Shown here: positions 4,569 to 58,822 of the stretch, one piece after another
Layout: the number at the start of each line of letters is the position of its first letter
Position numbering within the stretch: the stretch's first letter is position 1
Assembly (NCBI GenBank): GCA_036787065.1
Contig: DAIQPZ010000001.1
Span: 1-61,390 of the forward strand
Direction of reading: 5' to 3'
Source of the DNA: Anaerolineaceae bacterium
GTDB taxonomy: Bacteria; Chloroflexota; Anaerolineae; Anaerolineales; Anaerolineaceae
Length of the DNA stretch: 61,390 nt
Program-made: the position numbers and the translations under genes
The notes under the pieces: model-generated
Database searches by the model: none
What the model was told of the DNA's origin: nothing
The model's input: only the letters and a program-made list of their open reading frames with translations

Positions 4569-4680
4569 GTAATGGGTCAGCCTTGAAGAGAAAGTTGGCG
4601 AATTCGAGGAATTTGCGTGTGCGAAGCAAGCGCAAATTCCTCGAATTCGGGTCTTTTTCACAGGGGCCCGGTGTCAGCGC
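4569..4680 (+). mobile_element. Family-1 MITE-like element, degenerate terminal repeats
   Basis: Inner stem gaattcgaggaatttgcg / cgcaaattcctcgaattc (4600-4648) with compensated variants. The left end is gtaatgggtcag. The right end overlaps the stop codon of 4674-5438. Confidence 0.8.
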
Positions 4681-5438
4681 ACCTGTTTAAATTTTAACAG
4701 GATTAAGTTCTTTGAGCAGTCGTCACTCGTCTCAAAATACACTTTTGCTGAGAGCTGTAAACCCGCCTGGTCAAGCAGTTGCAGCCAGAGAGTCTTCTTA
4801 GTAGCGATGGGTTTTTCCGCTAATGAAAATTCATACCCGGCTGGGCCGTATTGGAGCGCCGTTCCGGTGAGACTGAGCATATCCAGATACTTATTACCCA
4901 GGACGCCGCCTAATTGGATCGTCACCCCAACGATTGGCGCATTGCGCAGATCCAACACCTGCCCGCCGACGCCCATCCAACTGCAGTCGCTGTCGGGGTG
5001 AGTGATGATGCTGGCGACAAACACGGGCGTACCGACCATTTCATAAGGCATATTTGCTTTAACCGTCACGGGGGTCGACGTGGTTGGCGTATGGAGGGGT
5101 TGGGCGCCAGACGTGTAGGGGATCGAATAGGGTGTTGGGGTGGTTGTTTCCGGATGAGGTGTGCTGGTATCCGTTGGCAATGGAGAAGCGGTCGGGGTCC
5201 AGGTTGGGGGAAACTCTTTAATCGGTTTTTGCGTCGCAGTGGCGGTGGGTAATACAATTTCAGCGGGAAATGAAATGGGCGGGAAAGGATTAATCGGCAA
5301 ATAAGGATCAATATAAATTATTCCAAAATAAGCCACCATCAAGACGATCCCCAATAGGACCAGGGTGGTTAACATATTCCAGACGGATCCCCTGTCATTT
5401 AGGGAAGGGCGTGTTTCACTATCTTCGTAATGCATCAT
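4674..5438 (-). CDS. Hypothetical membrane-anchored protein with Pro/Thr-rich linker
   Basis: One N-terminal TM helix, a PT-rich segment and a C-terminal globular domain. No recognisable family. Confidence 0.5.
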   Translation of the reverse strand: MMHYEDSETRPSLNDRGSVWNMLTTLVLLGIVLMVAYFGIIYIDPYLPINPFPPISFPAEIVLPTATATQKPIKEFPPTWTPTASPLPTDTSTPHPETTTPTPYSIPYTSGAQPLHTPTTSTPVTVKANMPYEMVGTPVFVASIITHPDSDCSWMGVGGQVLDLRNAPIVGVTIQLGGVLGNKYLDMLSLTGTALQYGPAGYEFSLAEKPIATKKTLWLQLLDQAGLQLSAKVYFETSDDCSKNLILLKFKQVR

Positions 5439-5484
5439 CTATTCTCCAGCGACCTATCTTGCGCTTTGGCCTACTATTCGAGAA

Positions 5485-6474
5485 TCAAGGAAGGAAAATA
5501 TTAATCTTACTTTGCGCACGTGAATCTTCCAGCCATTTTCGTAATACTTGCTTTTCTATAAATGCTCGTGTCTGGGGCGTAAGCGAATGGTTGAGGTCAC
5601 GTTCAAGCACTAAAATGATATGGTATCCTACCTTACTTTTAATAATTTCCGAGACCTTGCCAGGTGTGAGTAAAAAAGCCGCTTTATCGACTTCTGGCGT
5701 CGTCAGAAAGCCTTGCGGGAACCAATCCAGGTCTCCACCCATCACTGGATCAATCTTCACAGCTAACGTTGCAAAATCTGCGCCAGATTGGAGCCGGGAA
5801 TAAATAAGTTTTGCATCATCCTCATTGTAGACAAGAATCTGCACCACATGCACCTGATCGGCAGTATCTGGGATCCTGGCAATAATTTGGTCGCGCTGCC
5901 AGGCTGCATGCATCGATAACGCTAAAGATTGGCGGAAGCTGGCATCGTTATATCCATGCTGGCCTTCCCAATCGGTTAAGGCCTGGTTATCACCCAGCTG
6001 GTTGACCAACTGTCCAATACGGGTCTGGATATCGTTACCTGTCACAAGATGACCTGCCCGGACTGCAGCCTGCGCCAACAATAGGTTATCCACCATATCG
6101 TTGATCACCACCTGTTGTTGATCTTTATCGGCTAAGGGAACGCCGCCGCTAGATTTTTGAGCGGCCTGATAACGCCCCAGTTCTGCCTGAAACTCAACCA
6201 GGGTAATGCCCTCACCATTCACCTCAGCCGCCAGCGGCCCAGGGATAAGCGTTGGGGTCGGGGTATTCTTGGCTGTCTTTTCTACTAGCGGTGTCACGGT
6301 CATCGGTGCAGCAACCTGACCGCTGGCTACTGACGTGAGCGTAGCGGTCGTTGCAATCGGTGGCACAAACGGCGTACTGGTCTTTTTACCCCCACAGGCT
6401 GCCAGTAAAGACACGATAACCAATCCACAAATGAACTGCCCAATTTTAAATTGATGATGAAATGGGTAAAGCAT
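5485..6474 (-). CDS. PpiC-type (parvulin) peptidyl-prolyl isomerase lipoprotein, SurA/PrsA-like
   Basis: Lipobox LLAACGG. C-terminal parvulin motif GGDLDWFPQG..VGYHIILV. The ORF extends to 6483 but the promoter geometry favours ATG 6474. Confidence 0.75.
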   Translation of the reverse strand: MLYPFHHQFKIGQFICGLVIVSLLAACGGKKTSTPFVPPIATTATLTSVASGQVAAPMTVTPLVEKTAKNTPTPTLIPGPLAAEVNGEGITLVEFQAELGRYQAAQKSSGGVPLADKDQQQVVINDMVDNLLLAQAAVRAGHLVTGNDIQTRIGQLVNQLGDNQALTDWEGQHGYNDASFRQSLALSMHAAWQRDQIIARIPDTADQVHVVQILVYNEDDAKLIYSRLQSGADFATLAVKIDPVMGGDLDWFPQGFLTTPEVDKAAFLLTPGKVSEIIKSKVGYHIILVLERDLNHSLTPQTRAFIEKQVLRKWLEDSRAQSKINIFLP

Positions 6475-6511
6475 ACGAGTCATTATAACCTTGTCTGGTC
6501 AATCCCGTCAA
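6475..6511 (-). promoter_or_regulatory. Putative leaderless promoter of the PPIase gene
   Basis: Minus strand reads TTGACG (6506-6511), 18 nt, TATAAT (6482-6487), 7 nt, ATG (6474). Confidence 0.4.
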
Positions 6512-6549
6512 ACAAGGCGAGAAATTCTAAACTGATTGTAAGGTAGGGT

Positions 6550-6660
6550 GTTACTCCTCAGGCCTCTGTGAAAAAGACCCAAAATTTAGGGGTTTGCGGG
6601 TACAAAGCATCCGCAAACCCCTAAATTTTGGCAACTTTCTTCGCATGGCTGAGTAGTTAT
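6550..6660 (-). mobile_element. Family-1 MITE-like element, full length
   Basis: Ends gttactcctcag / ctgagtagttat. Inner stem aaaatttaggggtttgcgg / ccgcaaacccctaaatttt (6581-6629). gtgaaaaagaccc comes first, which gives minus orientation. Confidence 0.85.
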
Positions 6661-6741
6661 GATAAAACACCCCGAACGATGATGCCATTCGGGGTGTTTC
6701 AACCTTTATCCAGAGTCATTACTCCGGGTCACACGCCAAAA

Positions 6742-8373
6742 TTAGTATTCAGGCGGGGGCATGGGCGAGGACTTTTCCTTCTCAGGAACATCGGTGATCA
6801 AGGCTTCGGTGGTGAGGATCATTGCGGCAATGGAAGCCGCATTTTCGAGTGCGCCACGGGTCACTTTGGCGGGATCGATGACGCCACCCTTAACCATGTC
6901 GCCGTACTCTTCGCTCAACACATCATAACCGATGCGGTTGTTTTTCTTGCTCTTCTGCATCTGGCGCACGTTCTCCACGATGACGGAGCCGTCTTTGCCA
7001 GCGTTCTCAGCGATTTTGCGCATGGGAACTTCAAGAGCTTTGCGGACGATATTGAGGCCGATTTGCTCATCCTCATTGTCCAATTTCTTGCCATCCAGGG
7101 CAGGGATCGCATTGATCAGCGCGACACCACCGCCAGGGACAATACCTTCTTCGACTGCCGCGCGAGTGGCAGACAGGGCATCTTCCACGCGATGCTTCTT
7201 TTCCTTCAGTTCAGTCTCGGTCGCTGCGCCAACACGGATGATGGCTACACCACCGGACATTTTCGCCAGGCGTTCCTGGAGTTTTTCGCGGTCATAATCG
7301 CTGGTGGTATTTTCGATTTCGACACGAATCTGTTCGATGCGTCCCTTGATCGCGGATGTATCGCCCTTACCGCCGATGATGGTGGTGTTATCTTTATCGG
7401 TGTTGACTTTTTCAGCCCGGCCCAGATCACCCATGGTGATGGTCTCGAGCTTGCGGCCGGTCTCATCCGAGATGACGGTACCGCCGGTCAGGGTTGCGAT
7501 ATCCTGCAGCATGGCCTTGCGGCGATCGCCAAAACCAGGGGCTTTGACGGCAACGACATTCAGCATACCGCGCAGTTTGTTTAGAACAAGGGTCGCCAGG
7601 GCCTCGCCATCGATGTCTTCCGCCAGGATTAACAGGTCGCGCTTGCCAATCTGGACGAGTTTTTCGAGGATTGGAACGATGTCGGCTGCGGCAGAGATTT
7701 TCTTATCGTGGATCAAGATGTAAGGCTCACTAATCACCGCTTCCATGTGTTCGTTATCAGTTACGAAGTAGGAAGAAATATAACCGCGATCGAACTGCAT
7801 ACCTTCTACATACTCGGTCTCGAATTCGAGGCCTTTGGATTCCTCAACGGTGATCACGCCATCTTTACCGACTTTGTCCATGACTTCGGCGATCAAAGAA
7901 CCGATATTGCGGTCCTGGGCAGAGATCGTGGCGACATTGCTGATCTCGTCTTTGGTGGTGATTTCGATGGACTGTTTCTTAATGGCTTCGGCAACCATCT
8001 TGGAAGCCGCTTCAATACCGTGCTTCAAGAGCATGGGATTTGCGCCAGCAGCCAGATTCTTAAGGCCTTCGCTAACGATTGCGTGAGCCAGGACGGTCGA
8101 AGTGGTGGTGCCATCCCCGGCGATATCATTCGTCTTGGTGGCGGCTTCTTTCAAAAGTTGAGCTCCCATATTCTCAAAGGGATCTTCAAGCTCAATTTCC
8201 TTGGCGACAGTCACGCCATCATGAGTGATGGTCGGAGAACCGAATTTGCGGTCTAAGGCCACATTGCGTCCCTTAGGTCCAAGGGTCGTGGCGACTGCAT
8301 TAGCCACGATATCAATCCCATTCTTCAGGCGCCGTCGCGCCTCATCACCGAAAACCAGTTGTTTGGCTCCCAT
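6742..8373 (-). CDS. groL: Chaperonin GroEL
   Basis: 543 aa, [12 protein letters not shown], full-length Cpn60 similarity. Confidence 0.98.
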
Positions 8374-8402
8374 AGTTGTTTATCTCCTTCTTAGTTTATT
8401 AA

Positions 8403-8865: not shown

Positions 8866-8875
8866 TCCGCTTCGA

Positions 8876-14915: not shown

Positions 14916-16469
14916 ATGATTATGACATTTGCCTTACAAGCTACGGGCATCACCAAACGCTTCCCTGGGGTTTTGGCTAACGACCATGTGAGTTTTGACC
15001 TGGTGAAGGGTGAGATTCACGCTTTATTAGGTGAAAACGGCGCGGGAAAATCAACCTTGATGAACATTCTGTACGGCTTGTACCAGCCCGATCAAGGGGA
15101 GATCGGCATCAACGGCGCAACAACCCAAATTAAATCACCTCACGATGCCATTTCTCAGGGAATAGGCATGGTCCACCAGCATTTCATGCTGGTCGCGCCC
15201 CTGACAGTCACCGAAAACATCATGCTGGGCCAGGAAACCATCAAAGAGTCGACCCGGTTACTGGGGCAAATCGCGGTTTTAGACAGGCGCACCGTGGCCA
15301 GACGGATCCTGGCCTTGAGCCAGGAGTACAGCCTGATGGTCGACCCAAACGCCATCATCCAGGATTTAACCGTTGGCGCGCAACAACGGGTTGAAATTGT
15401 CAAAGCCCTCTATCGCAATGCTGAAATCCTTATTCTCGATGAGCCTACCGCGGTTTTGACACCCCAGGAGGCGGACGAACTCTTCGTCATCATGCGCACA
15501 TTGGTCAAACAGGGGAAATCAATCATCTTTATCACCCACAAACTGCGCGAAGTATTTGCCGTCGCCGACCGGATCAGCGTCATGCGCGGCGGGCAAATGA
15601 TCGGTACAGTCAAACCCAGCGAGGCCTCTCAAGAGACACTGGCCGAAATGATGGTCGGGCGTAAAGTTATTTTACAGATAGATAAAGACGATGCTCACCC
15701 TGGCCAATCGGTATTGAGAGTTGAAAATCTGACCGTTGAAGATGACCGCCGCCACATGGTGGTCAATGGCGTCACCCTCGATGTCCGCGCGGGTGAAATT
15801 CTTGGGATTGCGGGGGTCCAGGGGAATGGTCAAACCGAATTAACCGAGGCCTTAACCGGCTTACGCCGCACGAACAGCGGCCATACGTTCATCCTCGATC
15901 ATGAAACAACCCTTGCTAACCCGCGCAAGGTTCAGGAAACCGGGGCCGCTCACATTCCCGAAGACCGTCACAAACATGGTCTGGTGCTTTCCTTCCCTAT
16001 TCGAGACAACCTGGTTTTGAATACCTATTATCGCAAGCCATTCGCCAGGGGGATCGAGCTGGTTTATGCGACGATTGAGCAGCAGGCTGAAGAGCTGATC
16101 GAGACTTTTGACATCCGCACGCCCAGTATTCTTACCCCCGCCAGCTCTTTATCGGGTGGCAACCAGCAAAAGGTCATCATTGCCCGGGAACTTTCCCGCC
16201 CGGTGAAACTCTTAATCGCCAGCCAACCCACCCGTGGCCTGGACGTTGGCTCGATTGAGTTTATTCACCACCGCATTGTTGAAGCCCGAGATAAAGGTGC
16301 GGCTGTGCTGCTGATCAGCGCTGAATTGGACGAAATCATGAGCCTATCCGATCGGATCGCCGTCATGTATAAGGGCCGGATTTTGGACACCCTGGATGCA
16401 AAATCAGCGACCCGCGAAGAGCTTGGCATGTTGATGGCGGGTGTATCAAGGGAGAAGGCCCATGTCTGA
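14916..16469 (+). CDS. ABC transporter ATP-binding protein, duplicated ATPase (sugar/nucleoside uptake type)
   Basis: Two Walker A / signature (LSGGNQQK) / Walker B sets, 517 aa. Confidence 0.9.
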   Translation: MIMTFALQATGITKRFPGVLANDHVSFDLVKGEIHALLGENGAGKSTLMNILYGLYQPDQGEIGINGATTQIKSPHDAISQGIGMVHQHFMLVAPLTVTENIMLGQETIKESTRLLGQIAVLDRRTVARRILALSQEYSLMVDPNAIIQDLTVGAQQRVEIVKALYRNAEILILDEPTAVLTPQEADELFVIMRTLVKQGKSIIFITHKLREVFAVADRISVMRGGQMIGTVKPSEASQETLAEMMVGRKVILQIDKDDAHPGQSVLRVENLTVEDDRRHMVVNGVTLDVRAGEILGIAGVQGNGQTELTEALTGLRRTNSGHTFILDHETTLANPRKVQETGAAHIPEDRHKHGLVLSFPIRDNLVLNTYYRKPFARGIELVYATIEQQAEELIETFDIRTPSILTPASSLSGGNQQKVIIARELSRPVKLLIASQPTRGLDVGSIEFIHHRIVEARDKGAAVLLISAELDEIMSLSDRIAVMYKGRILDTLDAKSATREELGMLMAGVSREKAHV

Positions 16470-17835
16470 ATCGAAAATGACCCAGCCTGAGCTAATCCCT
16501 TCCCCAAAAACCACCTTTCAGCGACTCCTGAAACCCCTGGGGACGCCTCTCTTGTCTATCGCCATCGCCTTTATTATAGGCGGCCTGGTCATCTGGCTAA
16601 CCAGCGGAAGCTTTCAAACCATGCTCCAGGCTTATGAAGGCCTGTTAAAAGGCGCCTTTTTAAAACAGCGCGGCCTGTCCGAAACGTTGGTGGCAACCAT
16701 CCCTTATATTTTCCTGAGCCTGGCGGTGGCCGTTGGTTTCAAAACCGGCCTGTTCAACATTGGCGTGGAAGGCCAGTTCTATATCGGGGCCATTTGCGCT
16801 GCCTACGTTGGCCAGGTCTTACCGAATGTGCCAGCCATCATTCACCTTCCATTAACCCTGCTCGCGGCTGTTCTTGGCGGTGCTCTCTGGGCCGGTATCC
16901 CAGGTTATCTTAAAGCCCGCACAGGCGCCCATGAAGTCATCACCACCATTATGATGAACTACATCGCTTTCCGCCTGGTGGAATTCCTGGTCAGTGGGCC
17001 GGTCAAAGATCAATATAGCACGGCCGTACAGACGCCGCCCTCGGCAAAATCAGCCTGGCTCTGGTCTTTGGCCAGTATCCCACAGCGACTGCAAGACCCA
17101 TTGAACGCACTGGGCGCTGCTCTATTTATCGCATTTTTAGCTTATCTTCTGGCCCGCTGGATCATCGGACGCACCAGTTTGAAAACCCGCTGGCAGCAAG
17201 GCCATCAAAAAATGTTTATCTGCTCTGGTTTTGCTTTGATCATTGGGCTGCTGATCTTCCTGGCCCTGCCACCTATATCCAGGATTTACTGGCCTTTCAC
17301 GGACCAATATGACCGGCTGCATATCGGCTTACTCCTGGCAGTATGCGCCAGCGTCTTGGTGTGGTGGTTATTATGGAAAACGACCCTGGGATTTGAGTTG
17401 CGCACGGTGGGTGCGAATGCCAACGCAGCTCGCTACGCCGGGATCAACATCACCCGAAGTATTGTGGTTGCCATGGCAATTTCCGGCGCACTGGCGGGCG
17501 TGGCAGGCGGTGTTGAGGTGCTGGGCGTATCTGACTGTCACTGTTTACCCATGTTCTTCTCCAGCGGATATGGCTTCGACTCGATTGCCATCTCGTTATT
17601 AGCCAAAAATGATCCATTGGGCATCCTCGCGGCCGCTTTCTTATTCGGTGCTATGCGTAACGGCGCGGATCTGATGGAATTAAACTCAGGGGTGTCCAAA
17701 TATATCATTTCGCTGATCCAGGCGCTGGCCTTATTATTTGTAGCCGCCCCCGCCATTATCCGCACGCTGGTCTCTTTCCGGATCAGGAAGCAAATCAAAG
17801 AAGAACACCCGATCTCAACCCGCCCGGGAGGGTAA
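16462..17835 (+). CDS. ABC transporter permease
   Basis: Multi-TM protein. ATG 16462 overlaps the ATPase stop (ATGTCTGA). The ORF track start 16441 is GTG. Confidence 0.8.
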   Translation: MSESKMTQPELIPSPKTTFQRLLKPLGTPLLSIAIAFIIGGLVIWLTSGSFQTMLQAYEGLLKGAFLKQRGLSETLVATIPYIFLSLAVAVGFKTGLFNIGVEGQFYIGAICAAYVGQVLPNVPAIIHLPLTLLAAVLGGALWAGIPGYLKARTGAHEVITTIMMNYIAFRLVEFLVSGPVKDQYSTAVQTPPSAKSAWLWSLASIPQRLQDPLNALGAALFIAFLAYLLARWIIGRTSLKTRWQQGHQKMFICSGFALIIGLLIFLALPPISRIYWPFTDQYDRLHIGLLLAVCASVLVWWLLWKTTLGFELRTVGANANAARYAGINITRSIVVAMAISGALAGVAGGVEVLGVSDCHCLPMFFSSGYGFDSIAISLLAKNDPLGILAAAFLFGAMRNGADLMELNSGVSKYIISLIQALALLFVAAPAIIRTLVSFRIRKQIKEEHPISTRPGG

Positions 17836-18936: not shown

Positions 18937-19007
18937 AGGCCCAAAAATAGTCAACCTTCGGGAAGGCAGATGTGTTCTCCCGGCCTTTGTGATTTTCCAC
19001 CCAAACC

Positions 19008-19100
19008 GTAACTGCTCCGCCATGCGAAGAAAGTTGCCGAATTTGAGGTGTTTGATTGTGCTTCGCACACGCAAACACCTCGAATTCGGGTCTTTTTCAT
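19008..19100 (+). mobile_element. Family-1 MITE-like element, right terminal repeat missing, stem partly decayed
   Basis: gtaactgctc..gaaagttgccgaatttgaggtgtttgattgtgcttcgcacacgcaaacacctcgaattcgggtctttttcat. Confidence 0.8.
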
Positions 19101-19195
19101 ACGAGAAGAAACCCTGCTTGGGATTGTGCTCATGGATCCTACATTATCTCGGTACGGGCCGGTTGAGAGCGTGGTTTAATGATATGTATTGTGCT

Positions 19196-19210
19196 ACACC
19201 TCAAATTCGG
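19196..19210. repeat. Solo fragment of a family-1 inner arm
   Basis: acacctcaaattcgg, a 15-nt exact match to the consensus right arm, ~95 bp after the truncated copy. Confidence 0.6.
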
Positions 19211-19288
19211 TGACTTAATTCTGTGTTAACCGGATTAAAAGTCATAAGCAATCTAGATTTCGAAACAACAGCACGAAAGGAATGGACC

Positions 19289-22628: not shown

Positions 22629-22640
22629 AGCCCCGGTCAG

Positions 22641-22745
22641 GTTAATCCTTCAGTTAAAGTTGCCGAATTTGAGGTGTTTGCGCTTGCCAAGTAAGCGCCT
22701 ACCCCTCAAATTCAGGTCTTTTTTTACACAAGCCTGAGCAATTAC
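22641..22745 (+). mobile_element. Family-1 MITE-like element, full length, decayed stem
   Basis: Ends gttaatccttcag / ctgagcaattac. The inner arms have 3 mismatches. Confidence 0.8.
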
Positions 22746-22846
22746 CTGGAACTAATCATAAAAAGAAATCGTCATATCGTATATAATGTGAATCAGGTTA
22801 ATCACGCCAACTGTTTCAAGTCATCATGATTTAAGGAGAAGAAGAA

Positions 22847-24056: not shown

Positions 24057-24085
24057 GGGGGATTTTTAAGATAGAATAAAGATAG

Positions 24086-24192
24086 ATCCTCAGACTTGAG
24101 GTGACAATCGCCGAACTTCAGGTGATTGCGGATGCGAAGAACCCGCAATCACCTGAAATTCCGACCTTTTTCACGCGAGCCAGAGCAGTAAA
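24086..24192 (+). mobile_element. Family-1 MITE-like element, degenerate ends
   Basis: Inner stem gaacttcaggtgattgcgg / ccgcaatcacctgaaattc (24113-24161) with compensated variants, then cctttttcac and ccagagcagtaa. Confidence 0.8.
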
Positions 24193-24218
24193 AAGAATTA
24201 TTACAGGAGACCGTTTTT

Positions 24219-28397: not shown

Positions 28398-28581
28398 CAT
28401 ATGCGCTAACATAAGCAGAACATTAGCGAGCGAAAAAAAGTGCAGAACCTCACTTATTTGATTGAAATGCTGCGAGGCTTTGCGAAGCAATCAGATTGCT
28501 TCGCAAAGCCTCCATTAGACATTTCTCTTGTTCATGTCATGTGCCCAATGCAAGCGCGAGCGGCTTAAGTTAGCGCATATG
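28398..28581. repeat. 184-bp element bounded by 19-bp inverted repeats with a central 39-bp palindrome
   Basis: catatgcgctaacataagc (28398-28416) pairs with gcttaagttagcgcatatg (28563-28581) with 1 mismatch. The central perfect palindrome gaggctttgcgaagcaatc a gattgcttcgcaaagcctc is at 28474-28512. Confidence 0.6.
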
Positions 28582-31070: not shown

Positions 31071-31145
31071 TGTTTACCTCCAGAAATATATATTGGATAT
31101 TTAATTTTACCATGCCTTACCCAGATCGGGAAAGTAATTGGTTCT

Positions 31146-31255
31146 GTTACTGCTCAGGTATACGTGAATAAGACCCGAATTTGAGGTGTTTACAGGTGCT
31201 CAGCACCCGCAAACACCTCAAATTCTGGGATTCTTTTCTCATGGCTGAGCAGAAC
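31146..31255 (-). mobile_element. Family-1 MITE-like element, full length
   Basis: Ends gttactgctcag / ctgagcagaac. The right end abuts the stop codon (31256-31258) of the YvcK-like gene. Confidence 0.85.
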
Positions 31256-32587
31256 CTAATCAGCTAATGGGCCTGTCCGTTCGTAAAAGAGGTCATTAAT
31301 GACCTGCGCAAGCTTGGTTGAATCGTGTCGCCAGGGGTTTTCTTCGTCGATCAGATCGGCCTGATAAACGGCATAATTTTCTTCTAGATTCGGATCCGTT
31401 TTAACCCACCCGATCCCTTGGGGTAACAGCCCGTCATAACGCCGGTTGCAGATTATCAGATCGAATAACCGCCCAGTGACATGCTTTTCTAAGGTGTACA
31501 AATGATCAGTAGAAGAATAACCATCGGTTTCCCCCGGTTGGGTGGCCACGTTGCATACATAAAACTTAATCGCCCGGCTCGCACGAATTGCTTCAGCCAG
31601 ATCAGACACTAAAAGATTGGGCAGCAAGCTGGTATACAGGCTTCCCGGACCCACAATGATCAAATCAGCCGATAGGATTGCCGCGATAGCGGGTGGAAAC
31701 GCGGGTGCATTACCCGGTTCAAGCCAGACGCGTTTAATCTTTCCCGCCGTTTTAGGGATATTGCTTTCGCCGCTCACCTGTACGCGCTTTTTTGTATCGG
31801 CCATTTCCACGTCAGCCACCAGATGCACATCGTGTAAAGTGGCTGGGATAACCTGCCCATGAACCGCCAGAACCCGCCCCGATTCGGCCACAGCCTCTTC
31901 AAAACTTCCCGTTATGTCCGTAAGCGCGGAGATAAACAGGTTCCCCAGGGTATGCCCACTTAACCCATCCCCGGTGGCAAATCGGTATTGAAATATTTGG
32001 GTCAAGAGGGCTTCATCGTTGGAGAGGGCCGCCAGGCAGTTGCGGATGTCCCCAGGTGGCAGGATACCCATGCTCCGGCGCAGTTCACCGGATGACCCTC
32101 CGTCGTCCGCAACCGTAACAATAGCGGTAATGTTGTGGGTGTAGGCTTTCAATCCCCGCAGCAAGTTGGATAACCCGTGCCCACCCCCGATCGCAACGAT
32201 CCGCGGACCGCGATCTCGCCGCCGGTAATCTGATACAGCTTCGATAACAGTTTTCCCAGGACGGATGAATGGGCGCAGTAATGTGCGGTTAAAACCCCAA
32301 ATCCCACTCAAAACCAGACCAACTCCAAGCGTACCAAAGATCAACACGCGGATAGGCCGGTCAATAAAACGCAAGGACAGGGTGGATAAAACCGGCAGCC
32401 ACCAGGTATCGGGCGCTGAGCGGTAAACATCCAGAGTAAAAACCGCCAGGCCAATCCCAAGTAAGGTCGTGCCCGCCAGGATTAACAACAGCCAACGTTT
32501 AACCCCTATCCCGGGGATCAGCCAGCGTAATTCCTGGAGCATCGCTTGCCAGCGATGCTTTCTTTTTCTGTCTTTCTCATTGACCAT
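31256..32587 (-). CDS. YvcK/CofD-like (UPF0052) protein with N-terminal membrane domain
   Basis: IVAIGGGHGLSNLLRGLK, PPGDIRNCLAALS. The first ~100 aa form 3 predicted TM helices. Confidence 0.8.
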   Translation of the reverse strand: MVNEKDRKRKHRWQAMLQELRWLIPGIGVKRWLLLILAGTTLLGIGLAVFTLDVYRSAPDTWWLPVLSTLSLRFIDRPIRVLIFGTLGVGLVLSGIWGFNRTLLRPFIRPGKTVIEAVSDYRRRDRGPRIVAIGGGHGLSNLLRGLKAYTHNITAIVTVADDGGSSGELRRSMGILPPGDIRNCLAALSNDEALLTQIFQYRFATGDGLSGHTLGNLFISALTDITGSFEEAVAESGRVLAVHGQVIPATLHDVHLVADVEMADTKKRVQVSGESNIPKTAGKIKRVWLEPGNAPAFPPAIAAILSADLIIVGPGSLYTSLLPNLLVSDLAEAIRASRAIKFYVCNVATQPGETDGYSSTDHLYTLEKHVTGRLFDLIICNRRYDGLLPQGIGWVKTDPNLEENYAVYQADLIDEENPWRHDSTKLAQVINDLFYERTGPLAD

Positions 32588-33694: not shown

Positions 33695-33805
33695 GTAACT
33701 GCTCAGGCTAGAGTGAAAAAGACCCGAATTTGATGTGTTTGCGGGTGCGAAGCATCCGCAAACACATCAAATTCGGGAACTTTCACCCCAAGGCTGAGTA
33801 GTTAC
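33695..33805 (-). mobile_element. Family-1 MITE-like element, full length
   Basis: Ends gtaactgctcag / ctgagtagttac. Inner stem gaatttgatgtgtttgcgg / ccgcaaacacatcaaattc (33726-33774). Confidence 0.9.
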
Positions 33806-36031: not shown

Positions 36032-36139
36032 CTAACTGCTCAGACCTTCGTAAAACGCCGAATTTGAGGTGTTTGCGCTTTCAAAGCAAGCGCAAACACC
36101 TCAAATTCAGGTCTCTTTCAAGAGATTCTGAGTAGTTAC
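36032..36139 (+). mobile_element. Family-1 MITE-like element, full length
   Basis: Ends ctaactgctcag / ctgagtagttac. Inner stem with a gcgctt..aagcgc upper part. Confidence 0.85.
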
Positions 36140-38252: not shown

Positions 38253-38304
38253 GACTGTACTCCTCTAAACAGGTAATTTGGCTCTCTGGTTATTTGCTAT
38301 ATAC

Positions 38305-38365
38305 CGCGCGTACGCGTGCTCAAACCCCAAAATGCGGACCATTCCACAGGAAATCCTGGAGAACC
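38305..38365 (-). repeat. Family-2 element, half copy
   Basis: cgcgcgtacgcgtgctcaaaccccaaaatgcggaccattccacaggaaatcctggagaacc matches the right half of 50827-50938. Confidence 0.7.
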
Positions 38366-38700: not shown

Positions 38701-39690
38701 ATGTTAATCCCGCTTAAAGCAGGAGAAGTTCTCCGGGGGCGTTATAAGATCCGCCGGATTATTGGCCAGGGTGGCATGGGAAGCATTTACCTGGCGGATG
38801 ATCTGCGCCTTGAAGGCCGCCTGTGTGCATTGAAAGAAGTGGAACAAGACCGTACACTTTCTGCTGATCTTCAAAAAGAAGCGCGAGACCAATTTTTGCG
38901 TGAGGCCACCGTCCTGGCCAGGTTGGACCACCCCAATCTGCCCAAAGTATCTGACTTTTTCTCGATCGGCGGGCGTGATTATCTGATTATGGATTTTGTA
39001 CCCGGCAAAGACCTGCGCACTTTGATGTCTGAGGCTCACCAAAACAATATTTTTTTGAATGAAAACGACGTTTTAAATTGGGCCAGCCAGTTAGCCGACG
39101 CGCTCAGCTATCTTCACAGCCAGGAACCGCCCATCCTCCACCGCGATATTAAACCCAGTAATTTAAAAGTGACTCCCAGTGGATTATTGAAACTGGTCGA
39201 TTTTGGTCTGGTGAAAGTTTTGGCGCCTGGCGAAGTGACCGTCACGATTCTACAAGGGCAAGGCACCGCGCTTTACACGCCCCTCGAACAATATGGAGGA
39301 GACAGTGGACACACGGACGTCCGGAGTGACATTTATGCCTTCGGCTCAACCCTCTACCACCTCTTCACCAACCGGCCTCCCGCCGACGCAAAAGAAAGAT
39401 TTCTACACCCACAAAGCCTGATCCCGCTGCGAGAAATCAACCCGGCCATCTCTCAAAGGGTTGAGCGAGCCGTCCTGTGGGCCATGAGCCTGCATCCCGA
39501 TGAACGGCCCCAAACCATCGAAATTTTACGCCAGGCGCTCCTTGGAGACCGGCCAATTTTTATCCAACCCAGACCGCTGACCCGTAAACCTGGCTTGCGG
39601 GATTACTTAAGATCCACACCTGATAAATTTTTAGTCTGGACCACCATTGGATTAATTTTAATCAGCCTGGTTACTACGCTAATGAAATAA
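38701..39690 (+). CDS. Ser/Thr protein kinase, C-terminally tail-anchored
   Basis: GQGGMGSIY, HRDIKPSNL, DFGL. A single C-terminal TM helix ends at the stop. Confidence 0.85.
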   Translation: MLIPLKAGEVLRGRYKIRRIIGQGGMGSIYLADDLRLEGRLCALKEVEQDRTLSADLQKEARDQFLREATVLARLDHPNLPKVSDFFSIGGRDYLIMDFVPGKDLRTLMSEAHQNNIFLNENDVLNWASQLADALSYLHSQEPPILHRDIKPSNLKVTPSGLLKLVDFGLVKVLAPGEVTVTILQGQGTALYTPLEQYGGDSGHTDVRSDIYAFGSTLYHLFTNRPPADAKERFLHPQSLIPLREINPAISQRVERAVLWAMSLHPDERPQTIEILRQALLGDRPIFIQPRPLTRKPGLRDYLRSTPDKFLVWTTIGLILISLVTTLMK

Positions 39691-39790
39691 AATTAAAGAC
39701 CCGAATTTGAAGTGTTTGCCGGTGCTTCGCACCGGCAAACACTTCAAATTCGGAGACTCTCTTCTACCGGTGATCGCGGCTGAGCATTGG
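39670..39790 (-). mobile_element. Family-1 MITE-like element filling the kinase/GH3 convergent spacer; degenerate ends lie inside both coding 3' ends
   Basis: Perfect core hairpin 39701-39725 / 39729-39753. gttactacgct (39670-39680) and ctgagcattgg (39780-39790) resemble the terminal repeats. Confidence 0.7.
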
Positions 39791-42595: not shown

Positions 42596-42706
42596 GTAAC
42601 TGCTCAGACATGTAAAGAAAGTTGCCGAATTTGAGGTGTTTGCGGGTGCTTCGCACCCGCAAACACCTCAAATTCGGGTCTTTTTCACGGGGCTCTGAGC
42701 AGTTAC
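42596..42706 (+). mobile_element. Family-1 MITE-like element, canonical 111-bp copy with 8-bp target-site duplication
   Basis: Perfect ends gtaactgctcag / ctgagcagttac. The flanking direct repeat gaaatagt is at 42588-42595 and 42707-42714. Confidence 0.95.
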
Positions 42707-50826: not shown

Positions 50827-50938
50827 GGATCATTGGGGATTTCCGTGGTGAAACCCCGCATTTTGGGGAGTGGGCGGGTGCTTCGCACCCGCCCACTCCC
50901 CAAAATGCGGACCATTCCACGGGAAATCCTGGAGAACC
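50827..50938 (-). mobile_element. Family-2 nested-palindrome MITE-like element
   Basis: Inner stem ccgcattttggggagtgggcgggtg / cacccgcccactccccaaaatgcgg (50856-50910). Outer repeats ggatttccgtgg / ccacgggaaatcc. The apex gcgggtgcttcgcacccgc is identical to family 1. Confidence 0.85.
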
Positions 50939-50977
50939 AAAACCTTAAGTCTAAATTTTAATGTATGGAGTAAGGGT

Positions 50978-51190
50978 ATGGCTGAACGTTTTGTTGGGAC
51001 CGTTAAGTGGTTTAACGCCTCCAAAGGTTATGGTTTCATCGGACGTGAAGGCGGCGAAGATGTCTTTGTTCATTTCTCTGCCATTCAAATGGAAGGTTAT
51101 AAACGTCTTAAAGAAGGCCAACAAGTGGAATTTTCGATTGAAAATGGTCCCAAAGGCCTGCAGGCCGCTGATGTTATGATTCCTGAGTAA
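50978..51190 (+). CDS. Cold-shock protein (CspA family)
   Basis: [29 protein letters not shown], 70 aa. The ORF track start 50870 is an extension through the repeat. Confidence 0.93.
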
Positions 51191-51211
51191 TCATTTTATC
51201 CAAAACTAACC

Positions 51212-51241
51212 AAAAGAGCCCCTGAATTCAGCGGCTCTTTT
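51212..51241 (+). terminator. Intrinsic terminator of the csp gene
   Basis: 9-bp stem aaaagagcc / ggctctttt with a T-rich tail. Confidence 0.6.
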
Positions 51242-51274
51242 GCATTTAATCACATTCCTGGTCACCATCTGGGT

Positions 51275-52467: not shown

Positions 52468-52498
52468 GAGTCACAGTTCTTCTTTCATTGCGAAATTT

Positions 52499-52606
52499 GG
52501 TTCTCAAGAATTTCCCGTGGAGTGGGCCGTATTTTGGGGTATGAGCGCAGGTACGCGCGCTCATACCCCAAAATACGGGATTCACCCCGGCAATTCCTAA
52601 AGACCC
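52499..52606 (+). mobile_element. Family-2 MITE-like element with 8-bp target-site duplication
   Basis: ggttctcaagaatttcccgtgg..ccgtattttggggtatgagcgc..gcgctcataccccaaaatacgg..agaccc. The direct repeat cgaaattt is at 52491-52498 and 52607-52614. Confidence 0.85.
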
Positions 52607-52696
52607 CGAAATTTAATGGTATTTCAGTTCTCGATTATAATATACTCATAAGCATTGGTGGATTTTTTAGCCATTCCTTCAAACAACAAATCACTG

Positions 52697-53618: not shown

Positions 53619-53624
53619 TTAAAT

Positions 53625-54521: not shown

Positions 54522-55583
54522 ATGAGCCAGACAGACCAGTCTAAACCCATCCAGATCATCAATAGTGTCGCGCCCATCCGCATTTGTGATAATGGCGGGT
54601 GGACCGACACATGGTTTGCCGGTCACGGCGCTATTTTCAATATTGGTGTTTACCCATATGCCGAAGTCCAGATCGAGGTATTCCCCCTTGCGGACCGGGA
54701 ACACCGCATCGTCATCCACGCTGAAAATTACGGCGAAAAGTTTGTGGTCCATCCCGAAAATGGCACGTATGATAAACATCCTCTGCTCGAGGCTGCCATC
54801 GATTACATGAAGGTCCCAGAAAATTTGGCTTTTGAAGTTACCATTTTTTCTGAAGCACCAGGCGGCGCCTCCACAGGCACCTCTGCCGCGGTCACCGTCG
54901 CACTCATTGGGGCTTTAGACAGCCTGTCTCCCGGGCAGCTAACTCCACACGAGGTGGCATACGCGGCCCATGCCGTTGAAGTTGAGATGCTGCACCAACA
55001 GTCCGGCATTCAAGATCAGTTATGCTCGGCTTACGGCGGGATCAATTACATTGAGATGGAAGCTTACCCGCATGCTTCGGTTTCCCAAATCGTCGTACCC
55101 AATACCACCTGGTGGGAGCTTGAACGCCGGTTAACTTTGATCTATCTGGGCAAATCCCACCATTCATCCGTTGTCCACGAGATGGTGATCAATAACCTGC
55201 AAGGCGCAGGTCCAGATTGCAAACAGTTGGAAGACCTCCGGCAGACAGCGCGCCAATCGCGCGATGCCTTATACGCGGGCGACTTTGAGGCGTTTGGAAA
55301 AGCAATGGTTGCCAACACCGAAGCGCAGGGGAGGCTCCATCCCGCATTAATTGGCCCAGACGCCACCCGGGTGATTGAGATTGCCAGACAATTCGGGGCA
55401 AAGGGCTGGAAATTGAATGGGGCGGGCGGAGATGGCGGTTCAGTCACCATCCTGTGCGGGGATCTCTCACACGTCAAACGCGCGATGATCCGCGAGATCG
55501 AACAAGAAAACCGGCTCTACAAAAATATACCGGTTTACCTCAGCCGTTACGGTTTGCGTATCTGGAAGCGAGATTGCTGTTAA
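54522..55583 (+). CDS. GHMP-family sugar/sugar-phosphate kinase
   Basis: GHMP motif PGGASTGTSAAVTVALIGAL. Substrate not assignable. Confidence 0.7.
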   Translation: MSQTDQSKPIQIINSVAPIRICDNGGWTDTWFAGHGAIFNIGVYPYAEVQIEVFPLADREHRIVIHAENYGEKFVVHPENGTYDKHPLLEAAIDYMKVPENLAFEVTIFSEAPGGASTGTSAAVTVALIGALDSLSPGQLTPHEVAYAAHAVEVEMLHQQSGIQDQLCSAYGGINYIEMEAYPHASVSQIVVPNTTWWELERRLTLIYLGKSHHSSVVHEMVINNLQGAGPDCKQLEDLRQTARQSRDALYAGDFEAFGKAMVANTEAQGRLHPALIGPDATRVIEIARQFGAKGWKLNGAGGDGGSVTILCGDLSHVKRAMIREIEQENRLYKNIPVYLSRYGLRIWKRDCC

Positions 55584-55590
55584 AGATTGC

Positions 55591-57903
55591 CTATTTCTGA
55601 GCCAAGAAGGGCAGCCAGAACAAGTCGTCCACTGTGACCGACGCTGGAGGTGAAAAAGGACCTACCCCACACGGGTTAGCAACTCGCACGCGCCAGTAAA
55701 ATCTTTTTCCCGTCGACAAATCATTGGGCGCCACGAAGGCCGCGCCAGTCAGACCGGTCCGGTCGAGTACGATTTGTTTGAAATCAACATCCAACGCAAT
55801 TTGCAGCTCGTAAGTCGCTGGACTTGTGACCGACTGCCATTTGAATTCCGGCCGGCGCAGTAAGAGCGCCGCACCGTCAGCCGGCGCCACCAGCGCGATC
55901 GAACCCGGTAGACTTTGTGCCACCCCCACCTGAAGGGTCACTGAACGTTTAACCGCGCCGCTTTCTCCCAGGATCGTGACCGGGTAAACCCCTGGCAGCG
56001 TTGTGCCATCCGCGGTTAAATCCAACCCAATCGATAAGCCAGGGTCTACCGGGTTCAGGCTAAAAGATGCCACCATGCCCTGTGGTAGGCCAGACAGGCT
56101 CAGGCTAATTGGCGTGATAAAGTTCCTGGCAGCGCTGCTTTGCAGCCCCAACAGGTTTTCACTCGCCATACAGAACTGAGGGTTATCAGATGGTGCCCTT
56201 AAGCTATATTCCGCATCCAGAAAAGTTGCACCGGCTACACCCCATTGACCCGCTGTATCCTGGCTGTCAATATAGACGGTATGGCGACCGGCATCCAGAC
56301 CCGTCAGGTCGATCCGTGCGGCCACCGGCTCTACTGGTTGGTCAAATGCGCCATCCACCGGCGCCATCAGGCCGCTCGAACCCCCTGTCCAGGCAGGTGT
56401 ATCGATGCTGTACCGGCTGGCCTGGATGGCGATTGGCGTGTGCTGACCGCTCACCGCACCGGCAAAACGGGTATCATCTGCCACCGCGTTGAGCGTGACA
56501 CCATCCAGGCTATCAACCGCCGGAGTAAGGGTATCTGGACCCGCCGGCAGTTGGTAAGGCAGCCGGGCCGTTTTAGCAGCATACATCAGGGCTTCCATGT
56601 TGTCCGGTAAAACAAGCTGCTCGAACTGGTCGCAAGACTCAAAGAAGGATGTGCCCAGTTCAAACGTGTAGCCTGGTACCCCCAGGCTGGCGTAAGCCCA
56701 TTCGTCGGTGGTGCCTGTGGTTGGGTACAGGCATGTATTCGACTGGCAAACCGTGTAATGATTAAAAAATCCGAATTTCTGCCCCAGGAGGTTGAGTTGT
56801 GATTGGTTAGGAGAGGGTAAAGCGGTCCAACCCCAGGGAAAAAGTACATTTTTACCAAAACTATGCAGGCTGATGAATAACCCGGCATAATCGGAAGGCG
56901 CGGGATCGCTGTCATTGGGTCCGCGCCTGGCCGGAAAGAGCCCCGCTATATACGCCTGTAGAGCCTGTGTTTCAGGCTCAGAGGCGCTGGATGGCCCTTG
57001 AAAATCTTCGTCGCATGGGTTGCGCGATGCACCCCCCCATTTGAAGTCGAAGTTCCGGTTGAGATCGACGCCAAACCAGCCCGTCCCGCAAAAATTGAGG
57101 TTATCCCGGTTTTTCCGCCATTCAACCCCACCCTCAGCAATTTTCCGGCCATCTGGATTGGCCTGAGGAATCACATCAATCTCGGTATCGTCCAACAGCC
57201 AGGTGACAGTTGGGTCCGTACCGTAAGCTTGCAGCAGGGTTTCAGCGAAGCGTGTGGCCAGCTCAGCCGTGGTATATTCCCTGGCGTGGATTGCGGCTAT
57301 CACCAGCAGAACCGGTTTCGGTCCAGGTTTTGACCGGTTGGTCAGCTTGAGCACAATGAGATCGGATCCCCCTGCACCGGCGTGGTTAACTTTATCCCAG
57401 CTCTGGCCAAAAACAACTGACTGGGCCAGGGCGGGGTAGTGGTCCACCATGGATTGTATGGATTGGTAAGTCTCTTCTACGGTGCGATAACACGGAAAAT
57501 TGGTAATTCCTGCGATTTGATCCGGTGAGTTGGCGGATGGGGGTTTAATCGCCTGGGTGCGCTTGAGATCGATTGCCAGGGTGAAACCGGCCTGCCGTAG
57601 GGCCTGCGCCTGGTTGGCGGTCAAGTAAACCAACGCCTGCTGCCTGGCATGATCGACTTCCCAAATATCCACGGAATTCGCCAGCCATGTAAGCTGGTTG
57701 GAATCCGAAAAATGGACCCAGGCCAATACCTGGGATGGCTGAACCGTCTCTAGGCTTGACCCCGTGGCGCGGCCCACAGGCAGCGCCGATCCGATCGTTG
57801 AAAGGCACGCGGCGATTAATCCTATCCAAACCCAACGCCACATAACCCGGCCCAAACCATCAAGCATAAATGCCCCGCATCTCATCTGGAAGCTGCCGCG
57901 CAA
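55591..57903 (-). CDS. Secreted M14 zinc carboxypeptidase with C-terminal Ig/Fn3-like domains
   Basis: IHAREYTTAE (HxxE), NRNF, SLHSFG. The start is uncertain: 57903, 57867 (ATG overlapping the upstream stop) or 57843. Confidence 0.8.
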   Translation of the reverse strand: MRGSFQMRCGAFMLDGLGRVMWRWVWIGLIAACLSTIGSALPVGRATGSSLETVQPSQVLAWVHFSDSNQLTWLANSVDIWEVDHARQQALVYLTANQAQALRQAGFTLAIDLKRTQAIKPPSANSPDQIAGITNFPCYRTVEETYQSIQSMVDHYPALAQSVVFGQSWDKVNHAGAGGSDLIVLKLTNRSKPGPKPVLLVIAAIHAREYTTAELATRFAETLLQAYGTDPTVTWLLDDTEIDVIPQANPDGRKIAEGGVEWRKNRDNLNFCGTGWFGVDLNRNFDFKWGGASRNPCDEDFQGPSSASEPETQALQAYIAGLFPARRGPNDSDPAPSDYAGLFISLHSFGKNVLFPWGWTALPSPNQSQLNLLGQKFGFFNHYTVCQSNTCLYPTTGTTDEWAYASLGVPGYTFELGTSFFESCDQFEQLVLPDNMEALMYAAKTARLPYQLPAGPDTLTPAVDSLDGVTLNAVADDTRFAGAVSGQHTPIAIQASRYSIDTPAWTGGSSGLMAPVDGAFDQPVEPVAARIDLTGLDAGRHTVYIDSQDTAGQWGVAGATFLDAEYSLRAPSDNPQFCMASENLLGLQSSAARNFITPISLSLSGLPQGMVASFSLNPVDPGLSIGLDLTADGTTLPGVYPVTILGESGAVKRSVTLQVGVAQSLPGSIALVAPADGAALLLRRPEFKWQSVTSPATYELQIALDVDFKQIVLDRTGLTGAAFVAPNDLSTGKRFYWRVRVANPCGVGPFSPPASVTVDDLFWLPFLAQK

Positions 57904-58639
57904 TGGCCTGCATCACGATCCGGCAGACGGCGCGGTCTGTCCCTGTTGAAGACAGGTCCCCGGTCTCTTCCAGGCAGAAAAGGCGGCCAAAACTAACCTG
58001 AAGGCTGCTATCCGCCTCAAAAACGCCTACAGGTAAAATGGGCAAACCCAGGCGAGCCAGATATTGAATAAAACGGCCCGAGCCACTTGGCGGCTCACCC
58101 AATTTCCCGGTTAAAATATCGCGCCCTTCGGGGGCAAGACCAATCACCGCATGTGGGCGCCGCCGCACAACCGTCACCACCTGGCGGACCGCCAGGGCTC
58201 GCTCTTCTGCTTCGGAGGGGTTCGGCGGCATTGCTGGCATATTGCTGAAACCATATACCCGGCCAATCGCATGCAATAACCATTGACTCATGGGCTTTAA
58301 AACCTTTTCCCGGGGCTGCCCCGGATAGGTAAACGCTCCGGTCATGATCCAAAAGATATCGAGTGGCACGGCTGCGCTGATGGCCAGAGACGTCCAAAAG
58401 GCATTATAACCAGGCCGGAAATAATGGTTAAGCGTGATCAGACACGGGCCTGTAACCGGTACATACTCTTGTCCATGGATAACCAGGTCTGGACTCAAGC
58501 CTTTGAGCGCTTCCACGGCATCCTTCTTGAAATCACGCTTCTGTTTGAAAAGAACAGCCCAAACCAGGTTTAAAACCAGACCAGAGGATAATGTATATGT
58601 GGGGAAAATCAATCTTTCGCTTGACTTCACTTTAATCAC
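57860..58639 (-). CDS. Putative LPLAT/PlsC-like acyltransferase (divergent)
   Basis: LNHYFRPG (degenerate HX4D) and LAPEGRD (PEG motif). Weak call. Confidence 0.4.
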   Translation of the reverse strand: MIKVKSSERLIFPTYTLSSGLVLNLVWAVLFKQKRDFKKDAVEALKGLSPDLVIHGQEYVPVTGPCLITLNHYFRPGYNAFWTSLAISAAVPLDIFWIMTGAFTYPGQPREKVLKPMSQWLLHAIGRVYGFSNMPAMPPNPSEAEERALAVRQVVTVVRRRPHAVIGLAPEGRDILTGKLGEPPSGSGRFIQYLARLGLPILPVGVFEADSSLQVSFGRLFCLEETGDLSSTGTDRAVCRIVMQAIARQLPDEMRGIYA

Positions 58640-58711
58640 GACCTATACTGATTTAAAGTAGACACAAAGTAGGGTCTGGCTATTCAGCCTGAGCTTTATC
58701 TTAGCATATTC

Positions 58712-58822
58712 GTAACTACTCAGCCATGGTAAGAAAGTTGCCGAATTTTGAGTGTTTGCGGGTGCGGAGCACCCGCAAACACTCAAAATTCGGGTCTTTT
58801 TCACACGGGTCTGAGCAGTTAC
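58712..58822 (+). mobile_element. Family-1 MITE-like element, 111-bp copy with 8-bp target-site duplication
   Basis: Ends gtaactactcag / ctgagcagttac. The flanking direct repeat gcatattc is at 58704-58711 and 58823-58830. Confidence 0.95.

Follow-up and report, generated by a model that had tools for sequence, protein, structure and literature searches.

A miniature transposable element of an uncultured Anaerolineae bacterium whose palindromic arms differ between copies in matched pairs, by inheritance and probably by recopying

How do the two arms of a DNA hairpin keep matching one another when its many copies have come to differ in sequence? This question is raised by a 61,390-nucleotide stretch of DNA from an uncultured Anaerolineae bacterium of the Chloroflexota (Anaerolineaceae bacterium, assembly GCA_036787065.1, contig DAIQPZ010000001.1, positions 1 to 61,390), referred to here as the window. 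A first-pass annotation of the window had listed six hairpins in which changes to one arm are mirrored on the other, and by direct reading all six lie where it placed them and carry the variants it gave. The hairpin is the core of a 111-bp MITE, or miniature inverted-repeat transposable element, here called family A. The arms of this MITE probably stay matched through a combination of the amplification of variant elements, the recopying of one arm from the other in place, and the occasional replacement of the whole core.

The organism was sampled over approximately 417 kb from one population, about 8% of a typical genome, and all subfamily sizes given here are lower bounds. Its gene content, and the names of the homologues of a neighbouring gene of glycoside hydrolase family 3 (GH3), assign it to the Anaerolineae; an enterobacterial origin, which the cspA match and the GC content had at first suggested, was rejected on these grounds. 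A stem-neutral pattern taken from the conserved flank of the element recruited 58 contigs from public metagenomes. Of these, 2 overlap the window at 99.5-99.8% identity and so come from the same organism. A profile search of the approximately 417 kb identified 130 element loci, 108 of them with both arms. Covariation was assessed in 79 gap-free, de-duplicated copies from the window and approximately 340 kb of the organism, and pair changes were tallied over 100 unique copies. Alleles at the same locus were compared between strains that are 99-99.9% identical and come from other assemblies, a second allele being available at 16 loci. All sequences are short-read metagenome assemblies, that of the window having been made at k = 141, and contigs often break at family A repeats.

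A total of 64 full-length copies are delimited by GTAACTRCTCAG ... CTGAGYAGTTAC, with 2 or fewer mismatches per end and a modal length of 111 bp. The terminal inverted repeats are 12 bp (GTAACTRCTCAG). The target-site duplications are 8 bp, being perfect in 36 of the 64 copies and alike at 6 or more of the 8 positions in 52, as against a perfect 8-bp duplication in 2 of 5000 mismatched control pairings. Many of the copies are young. No open reading frame fits inside the 111 bp. As single-stranded DNA, the whole element (copy 42596-42706) folds at -46 kcal/mol (z = -14), with its central 25 bp perfectly paired and the outer part interrupted. The apex is GCGNAGC on one strand in 61 of 100 copies, a sequence that forms an extraordinarily stable DNA mini-hairpin (PMC13037366). 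There is approximately one family A copy per 5 kb of the window. The copies found there are as follows.

27..116, plus strand: family A, left end absent or diverged; perfect 25-bp hairpin 31-83, loop TTC.
4562..4670, plus strand: family A; hairpin 4599-4649, with the TTCGAGGAATTTGCG variant on both arms and apex mismatches; right terminal repeat decayed.
6550..6660, minus strand: full-length family A of 111 bp; hairpin 6580-6630, variant AAAATTTAGGGG/CCCCTAAATTTT.
19002..19108, plus strand: family A, right-truncated; imperfect hairpin 19037-19089.
19196..19221, plus strand: isolated right-arm fragment of family A (ACACCTCAAATTCGG...).
22632..22751, plus strand: family A, GCGCTTRC apex type; hairpin 22663-22715 with an asymmetric TTT/AGG bubble.
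24082..24197, plus strand: family A; hairpin 24111-24163, CTTCAGGTGATTG variant.
31144..31259, minus strand: family A; hairpin 31175-31227, in which the C at 31176 is mismatched with a T of the other arm.
33695..33805, minus strand: full-length family A of 111 bp, GATGTG/CACATC subfamily; hairpin 33724-33776.
36032..36139, plus strand: family A of 108 bp, GCGCTT apex type; hairpin 36058-36110, unchanged in L001-L004.
39666..39784, minus strand: old family A with decayed ends; perfect 25-bp hairpin 39701-39753 with two compensated positions.
42596..42706, plus strand: full-length consensus family A; hairpin 42625-42677, 8-bp duplication GAAATAGT.
58712..58822, plus strand: full-length family A, TTTTGAGTG subfamily; hairpin 58741-58793, duplication GCATATTC.
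60134..60245, minus strand: old family A; hairpin 60171-60224 with a 1-nt bulge and three alleles among strains.

The syntenic relatives L078 (GCA_936417505.1) and L079, with approximately 70% protein identity, have no copies at the sites of window copies 39666-39784 and 42596-42706. L078 has a young copy of its own, with the duplication CCTCTAAG and a diverged stem in which the lower part is compensated and the apex has two mismatches. The old copy at 39666-39784 fills the gap between convergent genes (stop codons at 39690 and 39764), its decayed ends overlapping the final codons of both open reading frames; L078 and L079 have just 4-28 bp at this position. When a genome collection was scanned with the stem-neutral flank pattern, 12 of the 13 matches were due to chance and one was a genuine but diverged copy, in a Chloroflexi metagenome-assembled genome (L019). 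No match to the element was found in a plasmid collection using blastn in a distant mode, and a tRNA/tmRNA scan found none of these genes.

The ends of the element point to its likely means of movement. ISDge4 of Deinococcus geothermalis, from the ISBst12 group of the IS66 family, carries GTGACTACTCAGCA / GTAACTGCTCAGCA as its terminal repeats and produces a direct repeat of 8 bp (PMC12898284); IS66 elements typically have GTAA ends and repeats of this length (PMC11946415). The family A end GTAACTGCTCAGCC agrees with GTAACTGCTCAGCA of ISDge4 in 13 positions out of 14, and family A has both the GTAA start and the 8-bp direct repeats that are expected of IS66/ISBst12. Judging from these ends, family A is most likely moved by an ISBst12-group (IS66-family) transposase supplied in trans. 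A MITE family with ISBst12-like ends in the Anaerolineae is previously undescribed. In the literature searched, no paper mentions both ISBst12 and MITE, and none describes MITEs in the Anaerolineae.

The covariation of the arms goes far beyond the controls. In the window, 20 matches to the consensus arm GAATTTGAGGTGTTTGCGGGTG are found at 3 or fewer mismatches, where none would be expected, and they always form inverted pairs 3-11 nt apart. Across the 79 copies, 95.8% of 1875 stem cells hold standard pairs, compared to 86.3% in shuffles, and when the partner column is slid the pairing falls to 20-46%. Changes have occurred on both sides at 20 of the 25 pairs. There are 148 double-changed cells as opposed to 25.8 in shuffles, and none of 500 shuffles reaches any of the covariation measures. 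The tally over the 100 unique copies comes to 199 pair changes that are compensated, 147 that are one-sided and 6 in which both sides have changed without pairing. The mirrored arm changes described in the first-pass annotation are therefore real. For example, hairpin 4599-4649 carries GAATTCGAGGAATTTGCG on both arms, which are 92% complementary, hairpin 58741-58793 has a perfect 25 bp with TTTTGAGTG/CACTCAAAA, and the arms of hairpin 24113-24161 are 95% complementary. The two copies that had been taken as decayed are indeed imperfect, with arms that are 88% (approximately 19037-19089) and 86% (22665-22713) complementary.

Compensatory substitution in a transcribed RNA hairpin, be it a terminator, an RNA-stability element or a small RNA, would maintain pairing in just this way, and selection on a hairpin was one of the explanations put forward initially. 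All copies are intergenic, GGGTCTTTTTC follows one side of the hairpin, copy 42628-42674 was picked up as terminator-like, and copy 39701-39753 exactly fills the space between two convergent stop codons. However, mismatches of the G·T type are as numerous as those of the A·C type in the orientation of the element (42 and 42) and nearly so relative to co-directional flanking genes (23 and 25), nor is there an orientation bias with respect to transcription (26 co-directional and 28 opposite). Copies are found between tandem genes (54) and divergent genes (14) far more than between convergent genes (5), terminator-like sites are no commoner than in shuffles, and copies that have lost the hairpin but kept their target duplications are tolerated. 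An origin of the pairing in an RNA hairpin under selection thus finds no support in the mismatches or the orientations, and is very improbable.

Two narrower candidates of this kind are not supported. Against an intrinsic terminator stand a T-run that begins 5 nt past the stem, the lack of orientation bias, the few convergent placements and the lack of enrichment; against wobble pairing in RNA stands the balance between G·U-type and A·C-type mismatches, whether these are counted by the orientation of the element or by that of the flanking genes. Rfam at gathering scores found only cspA (50862-51243) in the whole window and nothing on the family A hairpins, and in E-value mode one copy gave only generic microRNA-like hairpin matches far below threshold.

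The variation between copies is organised, to a large extent, into subfamilies. The 58743 type (TTTTGAGTG/CACTCAAAA) has 18 copies, 13 of them with a perfect stem; its members share linked flank variants and some have ordinary uncompensated mutations. The 33726 type (GATGTG) has approximately 7 copies, and a GCGCTTAC apex marks another large group. Pieces of the 4600 and 24113 variants (TTCGAGG and GTGATTG) recur in other copies. The variants are combined reticulately, in that all four combinations of lower stem and apex exist, GATGTG for instance occurring with either apex. A subfamily with a TTT/AGG bubble has also spread, its imperfect stem being itself transmitted. The 43 perfect stems represent 20 stem haplotypes, of which 16 were seen once; since the sample is a small part of the genome, this is weak evidence that a variant is private. 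The suggestion that changes are private to individual copies therefore holds, weakly, for those haplotypes and fails for the several changes that recur. Both outcomes of the question whether variants are subfamilies or singletons are seen. The regeneration of one arm at each transposition is ruled out by the spread of the fixed 3-nt-bubble subfamily and by the conserved asymmetric flanks.

The decay of the target duplication and the terminal repeats provides a clock for the copies, although age is estimated from 8 + 8 bp only. The number of mismatched pairs per stem is 0.80 in copies with a perfect duplication (n = 35), 1.47 where 6-7 of the 8 positions agree, 2.11 where fewer than 6 agree, and 2.27 in copies without recognisable ends, which are detected mainly via the stem; compensated pairs number 2.03, 1.76, 2.28 and 1.90 in the same classes. 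Mismatches rise with flank divergence (rho 0.35, p = 4e-4) while compensated pairs are flat (rho -0.09). Most compensated differences therefore predate the insertion of the copy, and ordinary decay follows. Stems still decay more slowly than flanks, which fits arm copying: in a young subfamily 1.1% of sites differ in the stem, whereas the terminal repeats differ at 5.6% and the subterminal parts at 4.9%. Part of the gap between stem and flank is ascertainment bias.

These results are in keeping with many distinct master copies, an explanation in the first-pass annotation that is borne out for the common variants, such as the 58743 type and the 33726 type. Taken to its limit, this explanation would have all compensated variation pre-existing in the source elements, intact hairpins being mobilised from them, and nothing but decay thereafter, with no copying between arms. 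It accounts for multi-copy subfamilies with linked flank variants and internal uncompensated mutations, for compensated pairs that are flat with age as mismatches rise, and for hairpin-deleted derivatives that persist with intact target duplications. It leaves unexplained how matched double changes at 20 of the 25 pairs arose in the sources, and the imperfect-stem TTT/AGG subfamily has spread as well. Further difficulties come from the comparison of strains.

Of the 16 loci with two alleles, 8 have no change to the hairpin, one has an uncompensated single-base difference (position 6623, which is A or G among strains), and 7 have events of interest. The first strain comparison (L001-L006) found no hairpin differences, the events emerging with more loci and strains. 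At copy 4562..4670 the alleles of L023, L086 and L087 differ outside the stem only, and at hairpin 24113-24161 the single-base differences among strains are in the flank only. Between window 31-83 and L064, the sole hairpin difference is the loop, which is TTC in one and GAA in the other. L029 and L068 differ in the same loop (GAA and TTC) and in one mismatch that has been corrected. The 1-nt bulge of window 60171-60224 (GCGGGTGC opposite GCACC-GC) is replaced in L085 by a deletion on both arms together with an inverted loop. The changes in L085 and in L029/L068 are reproduced exactly if one arm apex plus the loop is replaced by the reverse complement of the opposite one, as a template switch within a quasipalindrome would characteristically leave them. 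Template switching is reported to homogenise the arms of inverted repeats and to invert their spacers (PMC8604942, PMC8794818, PMC5941160). The C·T mismatch at window position 31176 has become an A-T pair, with A at 31176, in L093, L094 and L095, which are three independent assemblies. Between L059 and L075 the loop is GGA in one and TCA in the other, one base off an exact reverse complement, so that 3 of the 4 loop changes at the same locus are exact reverse-complement flips.

The family as a whole bears out these local events. Loops and their reverse complements are found in close to equal numbers: TTC 22 and GAA 19, TCC 15 and GGA 15, CAG 4 and CTG 3, CAA 4 and TTG 2, and AAA 4 and TTT 3. 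Even with identical stems within one subfamily, 7 loops are TCC and 5 are GGA. The asymmetric TTT/AGG 3-nt bubble is on the left or the right arm according to the orientation of the loop, and in some copies the asymmetric flanks have been made symmetrical outward from the stem. The copying of one arm from the other, as proposed initially, is thus seen directly in place, through loop inversions, two exact switches and one single-base compensation, although the bulk of the variation is inherited. Likewise, the multi-copy subfamilies with uncompensated mutations, which had been named as a refutation of arm correction, are true of the bulk of the variation, and the direct in-place cases remain beside them.

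A purely inherited origin of the compensated variation does not explain alleles of one locus whose differences amount to a single copying of the opposite arm in reverse complement, the conversion in place of C·T to A-T at 31176, or the 1:1 loop orientations inside one subfamily, and for these reasons is unlikely. That arm copying in place combines with inheritance is therefore preferred, and this copying is presumably replication template switching.

It was also observed that one and the same mismatch, in which GCGGATGC faces GCACCCGC through a G-to-A change at four bases' distance from the loop, is present on the same arm in six copies: window 33724-33776, 6580-6630 and 24111-24163, L052 1434-1567, L069 5151-5284 and L070 134-268. 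These span different subfamilies and both loop orientations, and the recurrence could reflect a mutational hotspot or a mosaic remnant.

Not all of the differences between strains are confined to one arm. Comparison of window 60171-60224 with L058 shows that a core of approximately 75 bp has been replaced between flanks that are 100% identical, with changes to both arms and to the apex type and with a 7-bp indel. Similarly, window 19037-19089 and L092 are 99.8% identical over 3372 bp with all 6 differences falling within 19044-19127, and a T/C variant passes from one arm to the other without inversion of the loop. Ectopic gene conversion, with tracts longer than the 53-bp hairpin, would overwrite both arms at once, spread variants as matched pairs and generate a mosaic family, and the L058 allele, the clustered changes against L092 and the existence of all four lower-stem and apex combinations are what it predicts. 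As the sole explanation it is nonetheless quite improbable. Conversion moves compensated pairs that exist already and creates none, the inversion of a loop relative to asymmetric flanks would need a donor that was itself already inverted, and there is no exact donor of the L058 core in the approximately 417 kb sampled.

The MITE fragments short-read assemblies of its host. The contigs L002, L003, L005 and L006 of public assemblies terminate inside family A elements, and L082 opens (1-30) with a chimeric piece of another copy. It has therefore to be asked whether short-read assembly through a perfect palindrome could itself generate the allelic loop inversions, in which case only the subfamilies would be real. 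Such contig ends, the chimeric start of L082 and the location of two inversion cases (31-83/L064 and L029/L068) within approximately 100 nt of a contig end would fit this possibility. However, the k = 141 assembly of the window has both loop orientations among its own copies, and, reasoning from the sequences, the L085 allele requires k-mers (GGTGCTTCGCACCGC) that neither strand of the window allele contains. Two cases, 60171-60224 and 31176, lie well inside their contigs, and three independent assemblies share the variant at 31176. Artefact is accordingly a highly unlikely source of the inversions.

The combined explanation would work as follows. Variant elements whose arms already match multiply by transposition into subfamilies, and most of the compensated differences seen between copies are therefore inherited. 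In a palindrome or quasipalindrome, template switching during replication would recopy part of one arm, often plus the loop, from the opposite arm, so that a mismatch either reverts to its former pair or gives rise to a new compensated one, with the loop left inverted. The GCGNAGC apex may nucleate the fold-back, and plausibly favours it. Occasionally the whole core is exchanged, probably through ectopic conversion with another copy as donor, and both arms are then altered together. When arm copying resolves a mismatch in an active lineage, transposition could then amplify the new pair into a subfamily. Arm copying makes the pairs and transposition amplifies them, so that the two explanations are complementary and not rivals. 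So many variants coexist because the hairpin belongs, as its core, to a transposable element with target duplications, an identity that the finding in the first-pass annotation did not give.

Several points weigh against this combination. Imperfect stems have been transmitted, and a perfect stem is therefore no absolute requirement for movement. The age test, which has low power against the large variance between subfamilies, indicates that in-place copying may add little to the standing variation, and its old copies are biased toward intact stems because their detection runs mainly through the stem. One simple template switch fails to explain the differences between window 19037-19089 and L092, and the position of the 31-83/L064 and L029/L068 comparisons close to contig ends counts on this side as well. 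A search of the window and the sampled loci for 12-mers like the terminal repeats revealed no transposase-sized element with family A ends; outside the MITEs it gave only short deletion derivatives and a third family. As no transposase gene was seen in the sampled DNA, the link to IS66/ISBst12 is drawn from the ends and the duplication length only.

It is conceivable, if rather doubtful, that the perfect palindrome is an evolved, self-repairing module and not a passive passenger. Capped by the ultra-stable GCGNAGC mini-hairpin, it would fold back on single-stranded DNA so easily that template switching would re-perfect and flip it far faster than point mutation acts, and its structure would be needed for ISBst12-type mobilisation or for persistence. 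MITE families whose ends differ, at least two of them and perhaps three, contain related palindrome cores. Were the module real, it would provide a natural high-copy system in which compensatory evolution driven by template switching could be measured directly.

The second family, family B, has two copies in the window.

50848..50916, no strand assigned: family B, with other termini (GGTTCTC...); perfect 26-bp hairpin 50856-50910, related to the family A core.
52491..52614, no strand assigned: family B; 8-bp duplication CGAAATTT, inner stem with many compensated changes relative to the 50856 copy.

Family B (termini GGTTCTCNAGRATTTCC...) is also found as a remnant at 38300-38365, in L031 (3313-3448), in L040 (10069-10203) and in L078 (approximately 16400-16490), and its hairpin core can be recognised as a relative of the family A core despite the different ends. 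There are many compensated differences between the two copies at 50856-50910 and 52491-52614. The match to the cspA thermoregulator (50862-51243) starts inside hairpin 50856-50910, so that the 5' region of a cold-shock gene contains a perfect 26-bp hairpin from a MITE. Family C, at L030 913-1004, has the same terminal repeats (GTAACTTCTCA...) and an 8-bp duplication, GTTTCAGC; its hairpin is GC-rich and entirely different, yet again has a GC-TTC-GC apex. Derivatives in which the terminal repeats remain but the central palindrome has largely or entirely gone are present at L048 12378-12418, L035 4125-4186, L031 3221-3291, L048 9-52 and L074 10800-10856. The target duplication is intact or nearly so in those at L048 12378 and L035 4125, and such short derivatives fit the in-place deletion of an unstable palindrome. 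Two further perfect palindromes in the window, 28474-28512 and 3749-3794, with arms of 19 and 21 bp, are unrelated to the MITE, the former holding GCGAAGC/GCTTCGC inside its arms.

Covariation in a stem is usually taken as proof of selection on RNA structure. Here a strong signal, with 20 of 25 pairs changed on both sides, is present in a selfish DNA element, where its sources would be the transposition of variant copies and the mutational copying of arm from arm, there being no sign of RNA-level selection. This calls for caution in covariation-based RNA discovery in metagenomes. The family also offers a natural system for the open question of template switching's share in compensatory evolution. 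Extrapolating from approximately one copy per 5 kb in the window, there would be several hundred or more near-identical hairpins per genome, and the many closely related strains in public metagenomes and the two clean cases of correction plus inversion add to the value of the system.

Family A resembles a number of known elements and processes without being identical to any of them. Its terminal repeat GTAACTGCTCAGC(C) is almost the same as the GTAACTGCTCAGCA of ISDge4, starts with GTAA and is accompanied by 8-bp direct repeats. In contrast to IS66/ISBst12 elements, it is 111 bp, carries no transposase gene, has no cognate full-length insertion sequence in the sampled DNA, and has a long perfect palindrome as its interior instead of insertion-sequence subterminal sequence. 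Among small bacterial mobile elements, hairpin changes that compensate one another have been described for REPINs (PMC3116915). REPINs, which are REP doublets mobilised by RAYT tyrosine transposases, are thought to move as single-stranded hairpins via a Y1 transposase and have neither terminal repeats nor fixed target duplications, whereas family A has terminal inverted repeats and 8-bp duplications typical of DDE transposition. The regularity of these duplications, together with the 12-bp terminal inverted repeats, rules out a REPIN or REP identity for the element.

ERIC, Correia/NEMIS, RUP, Nezha and MITEAba12 are all approximately 100-150 bp, intergenic, bounded by terminal inverted repeats, capable of foldback over the whole element and divided into subfamilies, and family A is alike in these respects. 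It differs from them in having no sequence relationship (no Rfam match and no plasmid match), a central 25-bp stem that is more perfect than the terminal repeats, and a loop at orientation equilibrium. In plastid non-coding DNA, small loops bounded by inverted repeats that are short and perfect flip repeatedly, and with homoplasy, between closely related lineages. That is another type of genome, and the family A hairpin belongs to a transposable element that each genome carries in very many copies.

The closest likeness is to quasipalindrome template switching, as in the Ripley model and in E. coli reporters, where multi-base changes match the reverse complement, arms are homogenised, loops are inverted and palindromes are extended outward (PMC8604942, PMC8794818, PMC7202029, PMC5941160). 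In family A, by comparison, these are natural polymorphisms between strains that are 99-99.9% identical, in a high-copy, non-coding mobile element. In ribosomal RNA, compensation together with loop inversion was found to be rare and not significant, with 6 cases, and the evidence for stem maintenance was regarded by the authors of that study as circumstantial (PMC8794818). Family A, as opposed to this, has two clean cases of compensation with loop inversion. The transposition of variants and the recopying of arms are both mechanisms that are already known, and family A is a clean natural illustration of template-switch compensation.

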